Source: Candidatus Obscuribacterales bacterium
Lineage (GTDB): Bacteria > Cyanobacteriota > Vampirovibrionia > Obscuribacterales > Obscuribacteraceae
Length of the DNA stretch: 64,000 bases
Assembly (NCBI GenBank): GCA_965228855.1
Contig: CBDDIJ010000002.1
Coordinates: 736,001 to 800,000 of the forward strand
Reading direction: 5' to 3'
Shown here in pieces: positions 18,813 to 61,770 of the stretch (its first letter is position 1; each line of letters begins with the position of its first letter). The notes below the pieces were generated by a model, which made no database searches, was not told the origin of the DNA, and was given only the letters and a program-made list of their open reading frames with translations. A program made the position numbers and the translations under genes.

Positions 18813-19047
18813 CTACTATATACCGAGGTAGTACACAGCCTCCCGAATACCAGTCACAGCAATGTTTTCAGGATTTCTTATTTATAGTCCGCCCTGAAAT
18901 CGGTTGCTTTGGCTATCGTACGATGACGGTTTTGCCGAAATGCGTCATTGTGGCGTAGACAAAATCACCAAGCGGTTTACGTCTGATACCCAAATCACCT
19001 CGCCTGAAACCATTTCGCGCAAAACGTATTCCTAAGTTCTATAGTAG
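18813..19047. repeat. Repeat element copy A (CTACTATA 18813; 50-bp palindrome 18911-18960; TATAGTAG 19040)
   Basis: GGCTA-TCGTACG-ATGAC-N16-GTCAT-TGTGGCG-TAGAC; gaps 90 and 79 bp. Confidence 0.9.
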
Positions 19048-28716: not shown

Positions 28717-28940
28717 CTACTATATTCTTTCGTTACTCCGATATCCCAAAAGGCTACGTGGAAGCGGCTTTAAGCCGATGCCTCCCCACTCCTCCCTTCT
28801 TTCCTACTATATTCTTTCGTTACTTCAACATCCCAAAAGACTACATGGAAGAGGCTTTGCGCCGATGTCTTCCATCAAGGTCGCGTGGTTGTCTATGAGG
28901 CGTTGACAGTTTTCACAAAAAGCGGCAATGCCTGATAGAC
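28717..28940. repeat. Repeat element copy B with duplicated left arm
   Basis: CTACTATA at 28717 and 28804; GTCTA-TGAGGCG-TTGAC-N16-GGCAA-TGCCTGA-TAGAC 28891-28940; gap 79. Confidence 0.9.
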
Positions 28941-29136: not shown

Positions 29137-29241
29137 CCCGTCATGCGTGGGGCGAGAGTTTCAAACTTGCGCGTCCCGTCATGTGTTGGGCGAGAGTTTC
29201 AAACTGCGCGTCCCATCATGCGGGGTTTCACACTTGCGCGT
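29137..29241. repeat. Degenerate tandem repeat (38, 37, 30 bp)
   Basis: CCCRTCATG...GTTTCAMAC(T)TGCGCGT x3. Confidence 0.85.
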
Positions 29242-29676
29242 CCCGCCTTGCGCAGCTCTCGCCAACCCGATTGACCTTAAAAGGCGCTAAAAAGCAAAGT
29301 CCGGTTATCTCGAAGGAAAGCCCGATATTCCAAGGCCGCAGTCCCGCGAGCAACTCTGGACTACACTGCAGTTTCTCTTATCTTGACAATACTGAACTGG
29401 TCTTAACTTGTGATCTTGCAGCCTGAACAAACTAAAGTGAACTCAGCTTCTGACATCAACTTCACCGGTTTCTCACACCCACAGTCTTCCGCATCAACCC
29501 CGAATTTCCGCAGCAGTCTGTGCTCCGGAGAAGACCGTCAGCAGCGAGCGAAGGGCATTCCTAACCCATAATCCAGCAGAACGGATCATGAACGGATTGC
29601 CCGGATGGAACACGCGAAGCGCCTGAGTACAAGCGCGTGTTCTGCAACCCAAACTCAGGCAGATTGGATACACCTA

Positions 29677-31590: not shown

Positions 31591-31737
31591 CTACTATATT
31601 CTTTCGTATACATCAAGCCCCAAAACAGCGCCCCTGTAACAGTCTTCGACACCAGCCGTTTCGCCAACCCGCACAATATACGGGTTTGGCTACGAGAGAA
31701 TGACAGAATTTGCCAAAAGCGTCATTCTCTCATAGAC
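31591..31737. repeat. Repeat element copy C
   Basis: CTACTATA 31591; GGCTA-CGAGAGA-ATGAC-N16-GTCAT-TCTCTCA-TAGAC 31688-31737; gap 89. Confidence 0.9.
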
Positions 31738-38520: not shown

Positions 38521-38710
38521 GAGGAATTCTATTCTTTCTACTACATCCTTCGTATTTTTTCTACTATATTCTATCAAATACATTCCCAACGTAATAGTAG
38601 AACCTGTGGACGTTTCGACTACTTCCTCACTCAGTCAAATCTCGTTTGGCTACGGGAGAGCGACGGATTTTCGAAAATCCGGCATCGCACCGTAGATAGT
38701 GTGTTAGGTG

Positions 38711-39673
38711 TCAAGCCAGAGTGCTGTTAAACCTGGAATCGAATGGTTGTTTCGAGCGATATACAGCGACCATCATACGGAGAAGTTTGCGTGAGGCGGC
38801 ACAAACAATTACTTTTCTGTTTTTTCCCTTTGCTGCCAGTCGTTTAGCGAATTCAGCCACTGGCGGATTAAACCGAGTGGCGGTAAGGGCGGCCATGTAC
38901 AACATGCTGCGGATCACTGGATTTCCCATCTTCGAAATTCTGGAACGTCCTCGGACTGAAGAACCGGACTCACGGATCATGGGATTCAGACCACAGAATG
39001 CTTCGATCTGGCGCAAGCTCGTAAACGAGTCCATCATCGACAGTTCTGAGAGAAACGTGAATGCTGTTCTCCAGCCGACGCCCTTAATCGTCTGGAGTAA
39101 TTTAGCGTTGCTTTTCAAAGCAGGATTCTCGGAGACCAGCGTCTTCGCCAGCTTTTCCAGTGTTTGAATTTCGTTGGTAATGAACTTCAACATACGCATC
39201 TGAGAGTCTAAAGCGCGCTGGTCCAGGCGTCCCGATTTCATTCGATTTGTGACTTGGGTTTTGGTTTTCTTTAGCGCAGCGAGCTCTCTACAAATGTCTC
39301 TCAGGGAGCGAATGTCAGGATCCATCGGAGACCAAGGAAGGGGCTCCATTTTAAAACAAAAGTCGGCGATGATTTCCGCATCGATTGCGTCGGTTTTTGA
39401 ACGTCTAAATTGGCTCTTGCCGAAGGCGTGTATCAGCGCTGGATTTACCACGCTGACTCGATAGCCAAGTTTGTGTAGAAACTCCGCAAGGGGCTCCCAG
39501 AGCTTCCCCGTAGCTTCCATGCAAAAGTGAACATCCTTACCGGATGCTTGAATCCATTTGACTATTCTCTTGAACCCAGCTGGGTTATTGCTGACGTGCA
39601 GCTTCGAATTCTTCCTGTCCTGGCGATGGCAGTCTAACGTCTCCTTCGATACGTCGATTCCAACAAAGATCAT
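38711..39673 (-). CDS. IS110 recombinase/transposase
   Basis: DEDD: GIDVSK, MEATG, KTDAIDA; C-terminal IKGVG, RESGSS..RISKMG. Confidence 0.95.
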   Translation of the reverse strand: MIFVGIDVSKETLDCHRQDRKNSKLHVSNNPAGFKRIVKWIQASGKDVHFCMEATGKLWEPLAEFLHKLGYRVSVVNPALIHAFGKSQFRRSKTDAIDAEIIADFCFKMEPLPWSPMDPDIRSLRDICRELAALKKTKTQVTNRMKSGRLDQRALDSQMRMLKFITNEIQTLEKLAKTLVSENPALKSNAKLLQTIKGVGWRTAFTFLSELSMMDSFTSLRQIEAFCGLNPMIRESGSSVRGRSRISKMGNPVIRSMLYMAALTATRFNPPVAEFAKRLAAKGKNRKVIVCAASRKLLRMMVAVYRSKQPFDSRFNSTLA

Positions 39674-39714
39674 TGCTCCTACCTCCTGTTGCTGGTTCGC
39701 TTGGACGCGGATAG

Positions 39715-39937
39715 AATCTTGTCAGGGCGAGCCTTGTTTACACGTGCTAAATCGGTCAGGATTTGCTGTAGATAGTGTTCAGCCTTAGAGGACAAGACAG
39801 GAGCGGAAGTCCGAAATCTACGCCTCTGACTTTCTAGCCGGAGACAAAATACTGGTTTCTTCCGCTCCTCTATCCTCGCGTCCTCGGATAGCCTTGCCGA
39901 CTGCACGCTCCTGGTCAACAGCAACGTACCAGTCAAC
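39715..39937 (-). ncRNA. Predicted IS110 bridge RNA (ends approximate)
   Basis: 5' hairpin 39896-39937; target loop closed by 11-bp stem 39799-39809/39859-39869; guides match target and donor. Confidence 0.8.
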
Positions 39938-40104
39938 ATCTAACGTACAAGACAAAAACCAACCGTCAAAAAACGCAGATCCGCGAAACGCCCAACTATC
40001 GAATCTTTTCACCAAAGTGCATCTAGTACCCCATATAGTAGCAAGGGCTGAGAAAAGACGAGGGGGCGCATGGGTAGCGACTCCTCGTCCTAAAGTGAAG
40101 CGGT

Positions 40105-44628: not shown

Positions 44629-44777
44629 CTACTATAGAATACAGTCTAAGCATATCATCCAAAAGCCCCGCCCAGTGATGGTTTAAGCCCCTCCAGACCC
44701 AAGTACTCTGCGCCAAAAATCTGATTTGTCTATCCACCAATGACGCAATTGCGAAATTCCGTCGCTCTCCGATAGAC
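44629..44777. repeat. Repeat element copy E
   Basis: CTACTATA 44629; GTCTA-TCCACCA-ATGAC-N16-GTCGC-TCTCCGA-TAGAC 44728-44777; gap 91. Confidence 0.9.
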
Positions 44778-44946
44778 AGACTCAAAGGCATTGGATAAAG
44801 AGACTGAGGGGCAATAAGCGGTGCACCGGTTGTAAATTGGCGAATTATTTTTCCGCCCGACAACCAGCTAGCGAAACCAAGAAAACGGCACTAGGACACC
44901 AGTGAACTGCTTTCTTGAAGAGAGAATCTGGTTCGCCCACACCGAC

Positions 44947-46727: not shown

Positions 46728-46965
46728 CTACTATACGCAGGCGTGATTCACCCTTCACCGAAAGGACGAAGTCAGCGGGGTTTCAACTGTTTTCGCTTCG
46801 TAGGTGGTCAGCAAAAACAAGGGTTTGGCTACGACAAAGCGACGGTTTCTTCGAATTTCGTCTACGTGTCGTAGACACGATGCGTCCTCTCCACTTCCAG
46901 AACAGACTAAAAGCTCGCTCCTGAAACCCTTTTGAGTAATTCAGTATCCCGATACTATCTAGTAG
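46728..46965. repeat. Repeat element copy F
   Basis: CTACTATA 46728; GGCTA-CGACAAA-GCGAC-N16-GTCTA-CGTGTCG-TAGAC 46827-46876; TCTAGTAG 46958; gaps 91 and 81. Confidence 0.9.
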
Positions 46966-55207: not shown

Positions 55208-56449
55208 CTACTTCGCTTGAACCGGCATCAGCAGATATTTGTATTGCTCGTCACCAACGCCCTTAAGAATGAGCGGCTTCAATGAACCGGTCATCTCCAG
55301 GCGAATCTCATTGACGCTCAATCTCTGAAGCACATCGAGAATGTAGCGCACGTTGACAGCGACATCAAGAGGCTGACCTTCGAACTTCACGGAAACCTCT
55401 TCCTGAGCGCGTCCTACGTCAGGAGTGTTGGCGGTGATTTGAAGGTTCTCGTCCTCGAAATGCATTTTCACAAGGTGAGTGCGATCGTCGGACATGACCG
55501 ATACACGCTCGATTGCGCGGACCAGCTCTTCACGATTGAAGTGTGCACAATGTTTGAATTCTGTAGGAAACAGTTCCTGATACCGCGGATATTCCCCTGA
55601 AATCAGGCGTGTCGAGAGGAAATGACTTTCGGTTTCGAACACGATTTGACCATCTGCCAAACCAATTCTCACTTCACCAGGAGTAAATTTGTCTGCGCTC
55701 TTCGGCTCATCGGAAGCCGATTTATCGTTCTTCGCGCTGGCGTCGGAACCATCCATCAACTTGACGATTTCGTTGCAAGCTTTAGCCGGAATGATGGCGC
55801 GGAGCATTCCACCTTTTTCAAGAGTCGCTGTTGCAGCCTTGCCTTCCGTTTCCTTATCGCCCTCGGTCTTCCCTGCTTGCGCAACGAGAGCGGTGAGTTC
55901 TTCTCTTCTGTGAGCCAAACGGCTGCCATCGGTCGCGGTGCACTCGAAATTGCCATCAGCGAGGAGAATGTACACACCACCGAGAATGCTGCTCGCATCA
56001 TATCCGGCAGCGGCGAAAGCGGTTTGAGCGATTGATTTTTTGAGAACCATCGCGGGCATGAGAACGGAGCTTTCCGGGCGGGCATCCGTCACTTTGGGAA
56101 ACTCGGCTGCCGGCAAACCGGTGATGTTGAATTTGGAGCGTTTGCAGGTGACCGCGACATCACTGTTTTCAACGTTCACTTGAAACGAAACCAATTCATT
56201 CGGAAGCTTGGAAACGATCTCAAGCAGTTTCTTACCGGGCAACGTGATTGCACCGGCTGTGTGAACGATGGCAGAAACCTTGGTCTCGATACATAGATCC
56301 AAATCAGTGGCTTGAAACTTGATTTGAGTTTCACCGTTCGATTCGATAAGCACATTGCTCAAGATTGGCTGAACAACTCTTGTTGCCAGAGCGCTTGTCA
56401 CGTCTCTCAATGCACGAACTAGAGTGTCCTTCTGGACTGAAAAGTGCAT
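55208..56449 (-). CDS. dnaN: DNA polymerase III beta clamp
   Basis: PILSNVLI, ATDL, ATDGSRLA, RLISGEYP, YLLMPV. Confidence 0.97.
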   Translation of the reverse strand: MHFSVQKDTLVRALRDVTSALATRVVQPILSNVLIESNGETQIKFQATDLDLCIETKVSAIVHTAGAITLPGKKLLEIVSKLPNELVSFQVNVENSDVAVTCKRSKFNITGLPAAEFPKVTDARPESSVLMPAMVLKKSIAQTAFAAAGYDASSILGGVYILLADGNFECTATDGSRLAHRREELTALVAQAGKTEGDKETEGKAATATLEKGGMLRAIIPAKACNEIVKLMDGSDASAKNDKSASDEPKSADKFTPGEVRIGLADGQIVFETESHFLSTRLISGEYPRYQELFPTEFKHCAHFNREELVRAIERVSVMSDDRTHLVKMHFEDENLQITANTPDVGRAQEEVSVKFEGQPLDVAVNVRYILDVLQRLSVNEIRLEMTGSLKPLILKGVGDEQYKYLLMPVQAK

Positions 56450-56752
56450 ATTGCCTACCTCGCCACTTCAACTTTTTGGAACAGCCTATATGGTACAGCC
56501 CTGAAGGCTCTCGATCTTTAGTGCGGACCAATAAAACTATGTACTCTGAATTAACAAAATTGATTGAATAAGGAGTAATAGGGGAGCCGATTTTCTGTAA
56601 GTAACGCTTGAAACGCCTGCTGGTACCGGATCTGCCATGTAGGAAACTTGTAGGCGGAAAATACAGGGGATGACAAAACTAACTCGAAATTGAAATTACT
56701 GACTTTCGGCCTACAAACCTGCAACAGGTTTTCTACAAGTTGCGCACAGGGG
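56450..56752. other. Probable oriC (dnaA-dnaN intergenic)
   Basis: AT-rich tract ~56530-56580; phased DnaA-box-like 9-mers including TTTTCTACA 56729-56737. Confidence 0.6.
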
Positions 56753-58474
56753 CTAATTGCCCAACTGGCGCTTGATTTGAGAAACAACTGCCGCCACTGC
56801 CGGATCTCCGACGAGTAGCTCCTTTACCTTATTGTCTGCATATATAGCGGATGTGTGTTTGCGATTTCCGAATGCCTGTCCGATTCTTGGAAAGCTCAAA
56901 CTCATCAAGTCATGCGCCAGGTGCATGGCGATGTGGCGAGGAGTCGTCAGGTCTCCGGCTCTACTCTTGCCTTTTAGATCAACCGGGTCGAGTTTGTAAT
57001 GCTCGGCAACCGCCTTGATAATCGTCTCGACCGTTAAGGATGGCTTGGAAACAGGCGTTCCGTGTGGAGTCAGCAAGGTGTGGAGAGAATGTTGATCGAC
57101 TTTTTGTCCGGTCAGGTTTGCATATGCGTTGACCCGTATAAGCGCACCTTCAAGTTCTCTAATATTGGTAGTGAATAAACTAGCGATGTGGTTTAGCGCC
57201 GAATCATCAATGACGATTCCGTCGAGGTCGCACTTCTTGCGAAGGATCGCCAGACGAGTTTCGTAATCCGGCGCTTGAATGTCGGATATCAGCCCCCATT
57301 CGAATCGGCTGCGTAAGCGCTCCTCCAGGCGTGAGAACGCCCTGGGAGGACGGTCTGAGGTCAGGATTATCTGCTTGCCCGCATCTCGCAGAGCATTGAA
57401 GGTGTGGAAGAACTCTTCCTGGGTCGATTCCTTGCCTTCGATAAACTGAATGTCGTCGATTAGCAGGACATCGTTGTATCTGTATCGCTTGCGGAACTCG
57501 CCCGTCGACTTGTCCTTAATAGAGTTGATCAGATCGTTGGTGAATCGCTCACAAGTCAAATATCGAATTTGAGCGTTTGGATTGTTCTCCAGAATCGCGT
57601 GACCGATCGCTTGCATCAAGTGTGTTTTGCCGAGTCCGACGCCGCCGTAAATGAACAGGGGGTTGTAGTTGTTGCCTGGATTTTGCGCTACCGCGAGAGC
57701 GGCTGAGTGGCAGAAACTGTTGTTTGAACCGACTACAAAGGTTGAAAACGTGTACTTGGGATTTAAACCTGAGCGCGTGAGATCGATCGGTCGTGATGGT
57801 CGTGGAACAGGATTCGCGGGCAATCTACCCATCTGCGGAGACGCGCCGGTTCTTGCCGCCTGCAAATCCTGTTGCTGAAACCCAGGCATAGAGCCGAAAC
57901 CGTTTTGACCGTGGTTGTTTTGCGGTATTGAAACGTTTCCACTTGCTTGTGCCTGCGGCACTGTATATGGTGTCGCTGGCACAGCAGTCGGTTTAAACAA
58001 CTCCTGCTGAGAATAGGCTTGAGAAGGGGTGTTTAAAGTGGGAGAGAACGCCGTCGGTGATTGCGCGAAAGTAGAATTATGCGATGTTGAAATCTTCGGT
58101 CCGGTCGAATAGGGTGATGCACCAGCCTGCGGGAGAGCGCTTGGCGCCGATGTTTCATTGGACAGATCCGCAAACGTTCCTGTGTAAACGGCCGGCGCGA
58201 CGGAAGAGTCCACTACGAAGTCGACCTTGACCGGAACTCCGGTAACTTTCTCAAGAGCTTCCTGGATCTGCTGTTTATGACGAAGAAGCAAAGTCTGATA
58301 GAACGAGTTCACGACTGCTACGACAGCCAAGCCGTTAGTGAACTTAGTCAAGTCCACCGCTGTCTGTAGAACCGCGAACACTCCCGGAGAAGCAGTTGAC
58401 GATAATTGTTTGAGGGCGTCAGCCCATATTTGCGGAACTGGTTTTAAATATCGGACATCGTCACTTGTGTGCAT
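56753..58474 (-). CDS. dnaA: Chromosomal replication initiator DnaA
   Basis: LNPKYTF, YNPLFIYGGVGLGKTHL, IDDIQF, RLRSRFEWGL, NIRELEGAL; start uncertain. Confidence 0.97.
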   Translation of the reverse strand: MHTSDDVRYLKPVPQIWADALKQLSSTASPGVFAVLQTAVDLTKFTNGLAVVAVVNSFYQTLLLRHKQQIQEALEKVTGVPVKVDFVVDSSVAPAVYTGTFADLSNETSAPSALPQAGASPYSTGPKISTSHNSTFAQSPTAFSPTLNTPSQAYSQQELFKPTAVPATPYTVPQAQASGNVSIPQNNHGQNGFGSMPGFQQQDLQAARTGASPQMGRLPANPVPRPSRPIDLTRSGLNPKYTFSTFVVGSNNSFCHSAALAVAQNPGNNYNPLFIYGGVGLGKTHLMQAIGHAILENNPNAQIRYLTCERFTNDLINSIKDKSTGEFRKRYRYNDVLLIDDIQFIEGKESTQEEFFHTFNALRDAGKQIILTSDRPPRAFSRLEERLRSRFEWGLISDIQAPDYETRLAILRKKCDLDGIVIDDSALNHIASLFTTNIRELEGALIRVNAYANLTGQKVDQHSLHTLLTPHGTPVSKPSLTVETIIKAVAEHYKLDPVDLKGKSRAGDLTTPRHIAMHLAHDLMSLSFPRIGQAFGNRKHTSAIYADNKVKELLVGDPAVAAVVSQIKRQLGN

Positions 58475-58914
58475 CTTCTTGAAAGACCTGGTTTCTGTGC
58501 TGCTTTTAACGCGATCCGTTTCAAAACGAATCAATAAAAACTGCTGGCGCTTCGGTGACCCGTCGATACTTCGAGAAAAATTACAGGACGGCTGATTGCC
58601 GATGATCACTTGATTGCCGATGATACGGAAATCAAATGTACCCTGAAAAATTTCTCAAAGAGTCGATCAACCGGAAGCGTGCCCGCAAGAAAATTCGCAA
58701 GCTTCAAGAGACGACGATCCTCATGCCGAGCTAGAAAACAATACCGACACAAAAGAATTCGTGCCGGCTCTAATTCAGCCTAAGGACTGTAAATTTTTCA
58801 TCGGTCGGGCTTGTGACCGACGCCAACTTTATTGCGAAAAATGATAGCATGACGTTTCATCAGAAGACATGCCAACATTTTTAACATTGGCGCTGTGCCA
58901 GGAGACTTTGGCTC

Positions 58915-59049
58915 ATGAAACGTACATTGCGTGGATCAAAACTGAAAGCGAAGAAAGACAGCGGTTTTCTCAGCCGCATGTCTTCCAAGTCCGGAAGAAA
59001 AGTACTCAAAAAACGTCGCCAGAAAGGGCGTTATCGTTTAGCCGTTTAG
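58915..59049 (+). CDS. rpmH: 50S ribosomal protein L34 (absent from ORF track)
   Basis: MKRTLRGSKLKAKKDSGFLSRMSSKSGRKVLKKRRQKGRYRLAV; synteny. Confidence 0.95.
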   Translation: MKRTLRGSKLKAKKDSGFLSRMSSKSGRKVLKKRRQKGRYRLAV

Positions 59050-59060
59050 GCTGACTGACG

Positions 59061-59483
59061 GTGTTACCGTCGGTTGAGAGACTTCGTCGGGCAGGCGTAT
59101 TCCAACGTGCATATAACCGGAGAATGGTTGTAAGCACGTCGGTTTTGTCTTTGTATGTATTACCGAAAGAAAAGAAGACCAGCGAAAGGGGTAAGAGTAC
59201 TTGGCGCCCGCTCGCTGGTTTTGTCGTAGCCAAGAAAGTATCGAAGAGTGCTTGCAAGCGAAACCGCGCCAAGCGTCAGATTCGCGAAGTCTACAGGCTT
59301 CTACGATCGGCTGTTTTTGACGGCGAGCGTGAGGATATCGCTCTTCAAGACTGGTACGCGATCGTCTTCGTGGCTCACGAGCGAGCCATCGAAGCTGATT
59401 TCAACGAGATCAAAGCATCAGTTACTGACGTTCTTGTTCGCGCCTCCGGCAAAACCCGCAAGGACAGGCGACCCGCCAAATGA
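59061..59483 (+). CDS. rnpA: RNase P protein component
   Basis: KKVSKSACKRNRAKRQIRE. Confidence 0.93.
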   Translation: MLPSVERLRRAGVFQRAYNRRMVVSTSVLSLYVLPKEKKTSERGKSTWRPLAGFVVAKKVSKSACKRNRAKRQIREVYRLLRSAVFDGEREDIALQDWYAIVFVAHERAIEADFNEIKASVTDVLVRASGKTRKDRRPAK

Positions 59484-59622
59484 TGATCAACTCGTTAATA
59501 AGTGAGCACTGTTGCCAATAGACGGCGATAATGTTTTAAACCGGTCGAACCAAACTTTTTCAACTTACAACCGGAATCACCGAACCGTCCATATTTAGCT
59601 CAATTGGAATTATACGTAACAA

Positions 59623-59901
59623 ATGAGATCTTCAAGTTTTAAGCGACTGCCTGGTTTTCTGGCGATCGGCTTGATTCGCCTGTATCAGAAAACCAGGATT
59701 TTGAGAGCGCCATCATGCAGGTTTTATCCATCCTGTTCAGAATATATGGCAAGAAGCATAGATGCCAACGGGCTGATGCAGGGTGTGATTGCTGGGGCAA
59801 TCAGAATTTGCAAATGCAATCCGTTCCATCCTGGTGGTGTTGACGAAGTCGCTGTACGAGCCGGTTCCGATGAGAGAGCCGCAAGCAAAACAAGAGGGTA
59901 A
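59623..59901 (+). CDS. yidD: Membrane protein insertion efficiency factor
   Basis: CRFYPSCSEY, CNPFHPGG. Confidence 0.93.
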   Translation: MRSSSFKRLPGFLAIGLIRLYQKTRILRAPSCRFYPSCSEYMARSIDANGLMQGVIAGAIRICKCNPFHPGGVDEVAVRAGSDERAASKTRG

Positions 59902-59904
59902 CCG

Positions 59905-61143
59905 GTGGATCTGACATATTCTTTCATGCTTCCTTTGCTGCAAGCGTTCCAAAAATGGAGCGGCAGCTACGGTTGGTCGCTTGTTCTGCTCACCCTGTTC
60001 GTGCGTTTGATTCTGTGGCCGCTGGTCGCTAAACAGACCGAGTCGATGCAACGCATGTCGATGCTGTCTCCGACCCTGAAGAAGTTGCAGAACAAGTACA
60101 AGGGCGAACCTGAGCTTATGCAGAAGAAGCTCATGGAGTTCTACGCCAAGAACAAGGTCAACCCCATGGGCGGCTGCTTGCCAATGCTTTTGCAACTGCC
60201 GATTTTCTTCGCTCTTTTCGCGACGTTCAGCGGTCCGCCTTTCGGCGACAAGCCGGTTCAAGTTCACGTCAAGGTTGTATCGGCAAAAGACGTCAATTCC
60301 ACGAAGAAGGAAACCTCCGGAGACAACATTCCCTACGTTTCCAAAGACGGCGCTCTCAGTAAAGTTACCGTTTTTCCCGGTGAAACCGAAATCAGCCCCG
60401 GCGGTAAGATTGATTTTGCCACTCGCGCGGTCGATGGCTCGCTGCCTGCCGACTTCAAAGTCGAGTGGCGCGTAGTCAAGGATAACCAGCCCGCCAAGGA
60501 GGACGCTGCCACTATCGACCAGGAAGGTCACGCTAGTTTCCTGAAAGAGGGCGATTATCAGGTCCAGGCGATGGTTCCAGGTATCGCGAAAAATGATTCG
60601 TTCGGTTTCGTCACCGGATTGGGTAAAGTCGCATCCGGTATGGCATTGCTGCAACCGCAAAACTTCGACGCACTCGGATTGATCATCGCATTCGGCATCA
60701 GCATGTGGATTTCGCAGAAATACACAATGTCTACAAGTCGTCCGAAAGATGAAGAGATGGATGAGCAGACAAGAGTGCAGCAAGACACAATGAAGATCTT
60801 GCCCCTTGTCACGACGGCGACGTTTTTCTTTATCCCGTTGCCGGTTGGTGTGCTAATCTACATAGTCTTATCTAACATGGTGCAATCATTCCAGACCTGG
60901 TTGCTCATGAAGAAGCCCGCTCAGCCATTGGTTGGAATCGACGAACTTGGTCTTGATGACCCACTACCACCTTCTGGTGGCGGCTCGGGCGGCAGCAAAA
61001 AGAAGAAGGGCCCGAAGACTGATGGCCCGGACGGCGATTCGGCGGCGGACGTGAATGTAGCCGATAAGCCCAAGGATGTGGAAGGCAGTGTCTCTCCGGA
61101 CGCGTTCGGCAGAGGCAAATCAAAGAAAAAGAAGAAGAAGTGA
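59905..61143 (+). CDS. yidC: Membrane insertase YidC
   Basis: NPMGGCLPMLLQLPIFFAL; cyanobacterial-style insert after GPPF. Confidence 0.95.
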   Translation: MDLTYSFMLPLLQAFQKWSGSYGWSLVLLTLFVRLILWPLVAKQTESMQRMSMLSPTLKKLQNKYKGEPELMQKKLMEFYAKNKVNPMGGCLPMLLQLPIFFALFATFSGPPFGDKPVQVHVKVVSAKDVNSTKKETSGDNIPYVSKDGALSKVTVFPGETEISPGGKIDFATRAVDGSLPADFKVEWRVVKDNQPAKEDAATIDQEGHASFLKEGDYQVQAMVPGIAKNDSFGFVTGLGKVASGMALLQPQNFDALGLIIAFGISMWISQKYTMSTSRPKDEEMDEQTRVQQDTMKILPLVTTATFFFIPLPVGVLIYIVLSNMVQSFQTWLLMKKPAQPLVGIDELGLDDPLPPSGGGSGGSKKKKGPKTDGPDGDSAADVNVADKPKDVEGSVSPDAFGRGKSKKKKKK

Positions 61144-61146
61144 GTC

Positions 61147-61770
61147 ATGAATCAATTCGCAGACACATTTGATGAAAACGCCCAGAGCTACTTGGAAAAG
61201 ATCCTGGCAATTCTAGACATCGAAGCCACGGTTATTCCTGAGGATCTCGACGACACGACAACCAGCTACCGGATCGAATGCAAGGCGGATGATGCCAGAA
61301 TGCTGATCGGTAGAAACGGCAAGACTCTTGAATCACTCCAGTTCGTCGTTCGACAAATGTGCCGCAGCAACATGATTACTCACAATCCGTTTGTGATCGA
61401 CGTTCTCGACTATCGTGCCCGTCGCCGGCGAACAATGGAAGAACAAGCGAAGAAGGGCGCCGTAGCTGTTTTGAACGGTGATGAGGAGCGCTTTGCGCTT
61501 GAGCCGATGAATCCCTACGATCGCCGTCTGGTTCACAATTACTTGCAAGACAACTTCCCCGAATTATCCTCTGACAGTGAAGGTGAGGGCGAAGAGCGTC
61601 ACATTGTTATCAGCTATCGCGGTTTGGACGAAGATGGTCAAGATAACAAGAAAGCCAAGCGCGTCGCCGCCGATGACAGTGAAGATGATTTCGACGGTGA
61701 TTTCGATAGCGACGAAGAAGACGAATTCGACGACAGCGAAGAAGAAAAGGCCGAAGCTGTAAAAGAGTAG
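61147..61770 (+). CDS. jag: Jag/KhpB (KH + R3H) RNA-binding protein with acidic tail
   Basis: LIGRNGKTLESLQ, PMNPYDRRLVH, SEGEG. Confidence 0.9.
   Translation: MNQFADTFDENAQSYLEKILAILDIEATVIPEDLDDTTTSYRIECKADDARMLIGRNGKTLESLQFVVRQMCRSNMITHNPFVIDVLDYRARRRRTMEEQAKKGAVAVLNGDEERFALEPMNPYDRRLVHNYLQDNFPELSSDSEGEGEERHIVISYRGLDEDGQDNKKAKRVAADDSEDDFDGDFDSDEEDEFDDSEEEKAEAVKE

Follow-up and report, generated by a model that had tools for sequence, protein, structure and literature searches.

The window analysed here, a stretch of 64,000 nucleotides from a Candidatus Obscuribacterales bacterium, contains an IS110 element (element A) of 1,258 bp that runs from CT to CT on the minus strand (39951-38694). 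The first-pass annotation had drawn the element as 38694-39953, which takes in two bases of the target; the true end is 39951. The recombinase gene (38711-39673, minus strand) encodes 320 amino acids with the Pfam domains DEDD_Tnp_IS110 (PF01548, N-terminal DEDD RuvC, 98.9 bits) and Transposase_20 (PF02371, C-terminal serine, 84.5 bits), both above cut-offs. The protein matches IS621 over its whole length (40.6% identity, E 7e-63), as it does ISCro4 (E 2e-59), and the nearest named homologue among the 120 listed (85%) is labelled Candidatus Obscuribacterales. Residues D7, E53, D95, D98 and S236 align with IS621 D11, E60, D102, D105 and S241 (numbering from PMC11208158, with a presumed offset of 2 to the PDB chain) and are invariant in all 13 proteins that were aligned from the 120 homologues. 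The gene is preceded by 278 bp of non-coding left end and followed by 17 bp, in keeping with the long left end, short right end and recombinase of 315-330 aa taken from the available text of PMC11208160 and PMC11187229; the IS1111 group has the opposite arrangement, with a short left end and a long right end for the guide RNA.

Just left of element A lie two tandem GntR-aminotransferase regulators, which we take to be MocR-type. A cluster of protease genes occupies 6399-44559 (two M4 thermolysin-type, two tandem M1 aminopeptidases, S51, PrsW and FtsH-like), short direct repeats of 26-31 bp with a spacing of 30-38 bp lie at 29137-29250, and dnaN, dnaA, a yidC-like gene and a jag-like gene are found at 55208-61770. 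The replication origin probably lies in the window or next to it. On the contig to which it belongs, the first 1,100,000 bases (G000:C2:1-1,100,000) have a GC content of 0.54-0.63 against about 0.50 elsewhere and just 3 tRNA genes, despite dnaA-dnaN; 21 tRNA genes are arrayed in 3.5 kb on another contig (G000:C3:724518-727973).

The junctions of element A read TTTTTGT-CT-TGTAC (core 39951-39950) and ACACTAT-CT-ACGGT (core 38695-38694). Comparison of copies assigns TTTTTGT (39952-39958) to the left target, at the outer end of an interrupted repeat, CT (39950-39951) to the left core and TGTAC (39949-39945) to the right donor; at the other end, ACACTAT with the right core (38694-38702; ACAGTAT-CT in IS621) is the left donor, and ACGGT (38693-38689) is the right target within the larger part of the palindromic repeat (38645-38693), all on the minus strand. 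Both halves of the insertion target TTTTTGT-CT-ACGGT thus read as first annotated. The donor ACACTAT-CT-TGTAC, which had been called a circle junction, has both halves present at the ends, the circle itself following from joining them on paper. Removal of the element restores a repeat end, CGTAGACAAAA, that is found 21 times in the genome, again as had been claimed.

Element A is present in three copies that are 100% identical (C2:775951-774694, the window copy; 859812-858555; 1122021-1120764). All three interrupt the repeat at one and the same CT, close to its end, and carry an identical CT core at both junctions. The genome holds seven IS110 matches and no others, three of element A and four of a paralogue, element B, at a second site of the same repeat; the mapping of copies proposed in the first-pass annotation therefore places 3/3 at the same repeat base and, counting that second site, 7/7 in the repeat. 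Sequencing depth over element A reached 39 where the flanks had 11-12, and 55 where they had 21-22, in runs that may be the source sample, an excess in line with several copies. Neither the circle joint nor an empty allele was found in the contigs of 7 sequencing runs; contigs drop rare forms, and these blanks carry no weight as evidence. Run X4, in broken pieces, was excluded. None of the runs on record as containing the element is an RNA run. A search for related loci returned two distant matches in genome contigs and six in metagenomes, two of the latter close. Close relatives in runs X7 and X9 (activated sludge) have short flanks and changed target-guide bases, at positions equivalent to window 39823 (right) and 39849 (left).

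The left end of element A is predicted to fold into a bridge RNA (z = -3.44; 0/200 shuffles as stable) with a 5' stem-loop (39895-39938, from folding alone), a target-binding loop (39799-39869, from fold and covariation) and a donor loop, and with guides in the order left target, right target, left donor, right donor (all on the minus strand). The 11-bp stem noted at first pass is present in this fold and closes the target loop (39869-39859 with 39809-39799), and an outer stem is predicted around both loops (39703-39883; 39883-39870 with 39714-39703). The guide register was taken from PMC11208158, with a natural IS621 copy used for comparison of left ends. All four guide strings had been located correctly by eye: ATTTTGTCT at 39850-39842, GGCGTAGA at 39824-39817, ACACTATCT at 39778-39770 and ACAAG at 39737-39733. 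The left target guide ATTTTGTCT follows GT at the same position as ATCGGGCCT of IS621, and the left donor guide is ACACTATC(T), of which IS621 pairs 8 bases (PMC11208158). Both right guides needed their limits redrawn. The right target guide is GGCGTAG (39824-39818), the last A of the earlier string belonging to the handshake guide AT (39817-39816; IS621 counterpart TGCGTAG-AT), and the right donor guide is longer than ACAAG, reading GT-AA-ACAAG (39741-39733) with a two-base bulge and followed by the handshake GC (39732-39731; IS621 counterpart AT-TT-GCAAG-GT, with the same bulge). The description of the recombinase, RNA and target as a fully specified set holds after this correction, not as first stated.

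The donors of IS621 (ACAGTAT-CT-TGTAT) and element A (ACACTAT-CT-TGTAC) are equal at 12/14 bases, and both differences (positions 4 and 14) are mirrored in the donor guides of element A. Its target guides encode ATTTTGT-CT-ACGCC. The window site agrees at 6/7 left and 3/5 right positions, missing 3/14 bases, and the other two sites agree at 5/7 and 5/5. The handshake bases AT and GC would form three Watson-Crick pairs before the swap and five after it. Across relatives, stems of the bridge region contain 22 cells with double changes against 6.6 ± 1.9, in an alignment that is poor at helix 7 and in the outer part of helix 1; the closing stem of the target loop has 5/10 counted pairs changed on both sides among 11 sequences, and the outer stem has 76.5% of cells paired and 1/12 pairs with a double change, which is weak. 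An unconstrained consensus fold of alignment A1 was set aside because it missed the 5' stem-loop and mispaired the donor loop. Rfam at gathering thresholds returned a tRNA and nothing else for the whole window. When the ends are joined, TTGACA (38709-38714) comes to lie 17 bases before TACGTT (39942-39947), both on the minus strand, and TTGACA-17-TACGTT is a plausible junction promoter with a weak -10 hexamer (3/6 to consensus; TATGTT in most relatives). TTGAC lies upstream of the left donor in every right end found, and is itself part of the search pattern; a promoter and terminator scan of the linear locus returned none, the predicted -10 falling below the scan threshold.

The interrupted repeat is an imperfect dyad of 52-58 bp (about 55), TGKCTAYS-N6-TGMCGGAWTT-N4-AAWWBCGKC-N7-SRTAGMCA, in which each arm is itself a GKC-N11-GMC dyad. 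There are 223 copies in the IS-free genome (0.2% of it), and it also occurs as tandem units of about 145-170 bp. Copies in the window lie at 18907-18963, 28887-28928, 31684-31725, 38645-38693, 44725-44781 and 46823-46864. Among 104 genomes of the family, strand matches to the pattern number 329 in the host genome (G000) and 244 in G007, while G006 contributes a single copy and the remaining 101 genomes contribute none; G000 and G007, which belong to one genus, are the only two with abundant repeat and with element A or B. Of the ungapped copies, 178/194 fall outside ORFs of 120 aa or more, and 70 of these 178 intergenic copies lie between convergent genes, compared with 315/2,348 gaps. The distribution is uneven, with 176/220 copies (80%) in the first 1.1 Mb of contig C2, a higher-GC stretch around the skew flip and dnaA. 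A CTACTATA motif faces the repeat within 140 bp for 161/223 copies, and the partner of most copies is CTACTATA-N6-CRTAT at a distance of 75-100 bp; near the interrupted repeat the motif is found at 40034-40041 (minus strand) and, facing the repeat, at 38561-38568 (plus strand). The arms have 17.1 complementary positions of 26 against 16.4 ± 0.16 when shuffled, a weak covariation, no less compatible with a protein-binding array than with a hairpin. Such an array is one possibility for the repeat, another being a site of recombination flanked by accessory boxes. A mover for it was looked for in the genome and not found: Y1_Tnp (RAYT) gave 0 matches in a genome 95% complete, by a search that was positive in 6/14 controls, and at the ten tyrosine-recombinase places checked (17 matches) there was no repeat within 1.4 kb. 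The exact pattern had 0 matches in viral contigs, and a literature search for the repeat gave one unrelated listing. Readings of the repeat as attC or as a REP foot were dropped after comparison with the consensus sequences. The repeat works like REP as a landing site, but the RAYT that would make it a REP in the full sense is missing from the matches.

Element B is 1,267 bp long and encodes a protein 52% identical to that of element A. The two form a supported clade (100/100) inside a group of nine from the same family (95/91). Element B has the same donor and nearly the same scaffold as element A, with the target guides AAAAAGCGT (left) and GGCTATG-AG (right). All four copies in the host genome occupy the second site of the repeat, and a fifth, in G007, is also at this site, beside an intact tandem twin of its target. 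The four copies in G000 show three differences, one of which lies in the left guide and fits that copy's own site; between the G007 element and copy B2, 10/1,267 bases differ, and two adjacent ones are in the left guide, both matching its own site. The site of copy B4 misses its guides at three bases. Copy B3 (G000:C5:860950-862216, L018) has C at left donor position 7, as in its own target, where other B copies have T; in this one case heteroduplex repair may have left its mark, or a point mutation may have occurred.

The bridge region was matched in 11/104 genomes of the family and in 13/401 of the class, all within the same family. Guides in these relatives vary together with the insertion sites, an outcome in favour of the first-pass reading, which had named guide changes without effect on targeting as grounds for its refutation. 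Over 12 elements the left guide agrees with the left flank at 67/84 bases of positions 1-7 against 35.0 ± 6.0 after permutation, and at position 8 in 11/12 against 5.3 ± 1.3; over 8 elements the right guide agrees with positions 10-14 at 32/40 against 17.0 ± 3.7. These permutation tests overstate the case, since the 12 elements are kin in about three guide groups. Five of 19 elements, without a right end, were dropped; loci left out of the statistics were more distant (L001, L002, L006-L010, L013, L015, L041-L044) or partial (L030, L069-L071, L075, L076); and in G103b and G069 the left guide lines up only after a shift by one base, which was chosen to fit. Poor fits are the right guide of G014a (2/5) and the left guide of G069 (3/7). 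Individual cases point the same way as the counts. A metagenome relative (85%), inserted in the same repeat family, has the right guide CTCGT and the site ACGAG where element A has GGCGT and ACGCC, and an altered donor base in G106 is mirrored in its own donor guide. Because the guides spell both the ends of the element and the site shared by all three copies, we consider that element A is very probably an IS621-type bridge recombinase element with guides set for its own joined ends and for the repeat. The first-pass wording, that the RNA is programmed against the repeat, agrees with copies and covariation but was overstated for a case built from sequence comparison.

The opposite reading, that the left end is not a guide RNA and that the protein alone selects the repeat, with guide matches arising by chance or copied from the flank, draws on the finding that the two 5-base right guides mean little alone, because each arises in about a quarter of shuffled left ends (single guide matches occur in 0.9%, 24.6%, 0.08% and 27.9% of shuffles, in guide order). 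We regard it as highly implausible: when the 262 nt of the left end were base-shuffled 20,000 times, all four matches never occurred together, the guides sit in the structural register of IS621, the stems show compensatory changes, and near-identical proteins (99.4%) bear different left guides that fit their own sites. The guides also point to the repeat when searched against the genome. Sites within two mismatches of the element A 14-mer fall in repeats in 34/85 cases compared with 4/569 for 12 shuffled guides, and for the element B target in 16/47 compared with 0/486 for shuffled guides. At up to three mismatches the share in repeats is 105/564 (19%) for element A and 56/406 (14%) for element B, and because so few such sites lie in repeats, flat base pairing does not fully explain seven insertions out of seven. 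Position weighting, structure or selection adds to plain pairing. With weighting towards the core, 48/70 sites lie in repeats for element A (using the 10-mer shared by its sites) and 25/72 for element B.

An addition to the bridge-RNA reading would be a second gate, in which the guides give the address and the repeat hairpin, or a host protein bound to the repeat, concentrates insertions there. The excess of 7/7 over 19% and 14% would follow from such a gate, the window site without its insertion is predicted to form a DNA hairpin whose stem contains the target, and a stem-loop gate has been reported for ISPpu10 (10.64898/2026.03.19.712850). Against this, one of the two empty element B sites that were folded lacks a long hairpin, the arms of the repeat co-vary as weakly as described above, and the right junction of the close relative L040, CT-ACGAG, leads into sequence that does not match the repeat (its guide being assumed from L039); we hold a second gate to be possible but rather unlikely. 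Alternatively, insertion may be broader than seen, with selection sparing copies in a harmless intergenic repeat. That 178/194 ungapped repeats lie outside long ORFs would make them safe sites, and the insertions seen in the genome number just seven. Selection leaves unexplained, however, why each family uses one exact base and orientation and why guide and site change together, and we judge it improbable as the main cause. The bridge-RNA reading is thus retained, and the earlier statement that a CT-core IS621-type element parasitises a multicopy repeat other than REP is supported.

The cores of element B differ between its two ends, GT at the left and CT at the right in 5/5 copies, and five more distant elements have AT at the left and CT at the right. 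Among the 14 elements with both ends, the pairs (left/right) are 5 GT/CT, 5 AT/CT and 4 CT/CT. In the unequal-core elements left and right differ in 10/10, and therefore T alone is common to the two. The search for right junctions had at first forced CT; when rerun with a free dinucleotide on 29 loci it gave a match in 16, with CT in 16/16 (one element entering the count twice). Intact repeats carry G at position 8 of the element B target in 258/259 matches and C in none, indicating that the G of the left core belongs to the target, and intact sites resembling those of the AT group carry A at the core position in 21/23 matches. The left junction always shows the target base and the right junction always the donor base. 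The eighth base of the left guide equals the target base in 17/19 cases in a fixed register, and in 19/19 with a one-base shift, while in the right target guide AG is retained and, after exchange, pairs with the donor CT. Over the first core position and the handshake positions, six in all, a count of Watson-Crick pairs, as distinct from an assay, is higher after exchange in 14/14 elements. Element B likely recombines although, of the usual two core bases, it and its target have only one in common.

We lean slightly towards the interpretation that the core in this clade is a single base, with the left guide reading target base 8 and the G of the right guide serving as a third handshake base. 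The alternative, that unequal cores reflect a constraint of the protein, with this G fixed by protein contact and the mismatch tolerated and of no role in exchange, is quite conceivable, if somewhat short of our preference: the counterpart G of IS621 bonds to the main chain of A61 (PMC11208158), and position 8 taken alone is neutral, since the pair that the target loop gains is offset by one that the donor loop loses. It sits less easily with the observation that in 10/10 unequal-core elements the G that has been kept is complementary to the donor C arriving at exchange, a non-cognate pattern like that of a handshake. A point against the model comes from IS621, where a target core paired to both guides was strongly preferred (PMC11208160); in element B the right guide does not pair with the target core before the swap. 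The junction pattern fits top-strand-led transfer or repair, a point debated in preprints. IS621 top strands are cut after the T of the core, the bottom strands of the product are expected to be unligated and mismatched next to the core (PMC13626964), and top- or single-strand transfer has been reported (10.1101/2025.10.25.684509; 10.64898/2026.08.31.748434); either bottom-strand mismatch with repair or transfer of the top or a single strand would yield the pattern observed.

In published work, cores were defined as the sequence repeated at both ends, the first core base was described as the less conserved one, and changing target, donor and all four guide positions together gave working AT, GT and TT cores, with lost efficiency (PMC11208160). 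Designs for human cells pair sites by identical cores (10.1101/2025.05.14.653916), CT and GT cores have been used against each other to remove cross-reactions (10.64898/2026.04.29.721476), and the preference for CT has been called a constraint (PMC13396178). Natural unequal cores were not found described in the literature searched, of which subscription papers and supplements were largely outside, nor in the available text of 10.64898/2026.08.14.744561. In the relatives studied here, 10/10 non-C targets retained a CT donor. If the single-base interpretation is true, a fixed CT donor could enter any NT target, lifting the CT and matched-core limits of bridge editors; natural unequal cores could in this way widen the choice of targets, or expose a limit of core orthogonality. 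It would also mean that nature has directed one donor to two positions within a young repeat, and that relatives have turned it on the XerD arm of dif-like sites.

Many AT-core relatives (G004, G014, G069, G098, G103; L005, L024-L026, L028, L033, L077-L088) carry the left guide ATGAAACAT. This string is identical to 9 bases at the outer end of one arm of ATGAAACATAA-TATACA-TTATC(A/G)GAC, a site seen once each in G000, G004, G069, G098 and G103; the G000 copy is at C3:1314921, near the skew flip of C3. Reversed, the site has the spacer TGTATA and 9/11 XerD-arm bases of Acinetobacter dif (PMC10132070). AT-core IS110 relatives therefore likely target dif-like or pdif-like sites, judging from guide and site strings. 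The dif-like pattern is not commoner than its reversed control (23 against 30), and the weight lies solely with two observations, the bias towards A at the free base and the conservation of a single-copy site. None of these IS110s was seen inserted in the single-copy dif-like site itself. IS110 targeting of dif-like sites was not found in the literature searched.

According to the model, the left end of element A would give rise to a bridge RNA that pairs with the joined ends and with the outer end of the repeat, and the recombinase would insert new copies at that repeat CT. By analogy with IS621, a circular intermediate would join ACACTAT-CT-TGTAC and build the TTGACA-17-TACGTT promoter; the target loop would read ATTTTGT-CT-ACGCC with loose outer positions; and the top strands would be cut after T and then swapped, with the handshakes AT and GC favouring the swapped state. 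In element B the same donor and scaffold with new target guides would lead to the second repeat site with its GT core, the left guide following the target G and the right guide G pairing with donor C after the swap, such that base 8 would likely act as a third handshake position and T alone would be shared.

REP/BIME repeats, which have RAYT (TnpA-REP) transposases, are short imperfect palindromes, mostly intergenic. The target repeat resembles them in its more than 200 copies, its enrichment between convergent genes, its tandem clusters and its use as an IS110 target (REP strings in PMC11208160). It differs in occurring in a genome where Y1_Tnp was not matched, in its length of 52-58 bp with four GKC/GMC boxes and weak arm covariation, in its partner motif 75-100 bp away, and in having 80% of copies within 1.1 Mb around the origin.

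IS621 of E. coli (PMC11208160, PMC11208158, PDB 8WT6) shares with element A the five catalytic residues, CT at both junctions, a right target guide identical at 6/7 bases, the handshake AT and entry into a palindromic extragenic repeat. Element A differs in its left target guide, in a target repeat unrelated to E. coli REP, in a longer left end (278 bp to the start codon), in a predicted outer stem that is missing from the predicted IS621 fold, in its donor-loop handshake (GC, GT in IS621) and in its host, an Obscuribacterales bacterium. Targeting of REP by IS621, guide covariation, handshake guides and natural redirection are already in print (PMC11208160, PMC11208158, PMC11187229); Obscuribacter and the element A donor were not found in the part of the PMC11208160 supplement that was searched. 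ISCro4/IS622 (PDB 9T56; 10.1101/2025.05.14.653916) likewise has a 14-base target and donor with handshake guides, but its design rule is identical cores, whereas element B and the AT-core relatives have unequal ones. ISEc21/ISMch6 (PMC11187229) resembles the present case in that a relative with changed guide bases sits in a matching changed target; it belongs to another IS110 subgroup, is a single example and, in the available text, includes nothing on the particular guide that tracks each core base. According to the same source, IS110 elements do not characteristically duplicate their target.

ISPpu10 and ISPpu9 of Pseudomonas putida (10.64898/2026.03.19.712850, PMC12288879) are also IS110 elements in repetitive extragenic palindromes, and ISPpu10 combines a strict right guide with a left guide that is loose at its outer positions (10.64898/2026.03.19.712850), as in elements A and B. 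An IS621-type element aimed at a palindromic repeat is thus an established idea, from IS621 and ISPpu10, and element A is one further readable set of recombinase, RNA, donor and target, ordinary for a class described in 2024. Its value is as a natural experiment in which two sisters with one donor and scaffold have been retargeted within a repeat of two genomes. P. putida also carries two IS110 elements in its genome; elements A and B share a donor and occupy two sites of one repeat.
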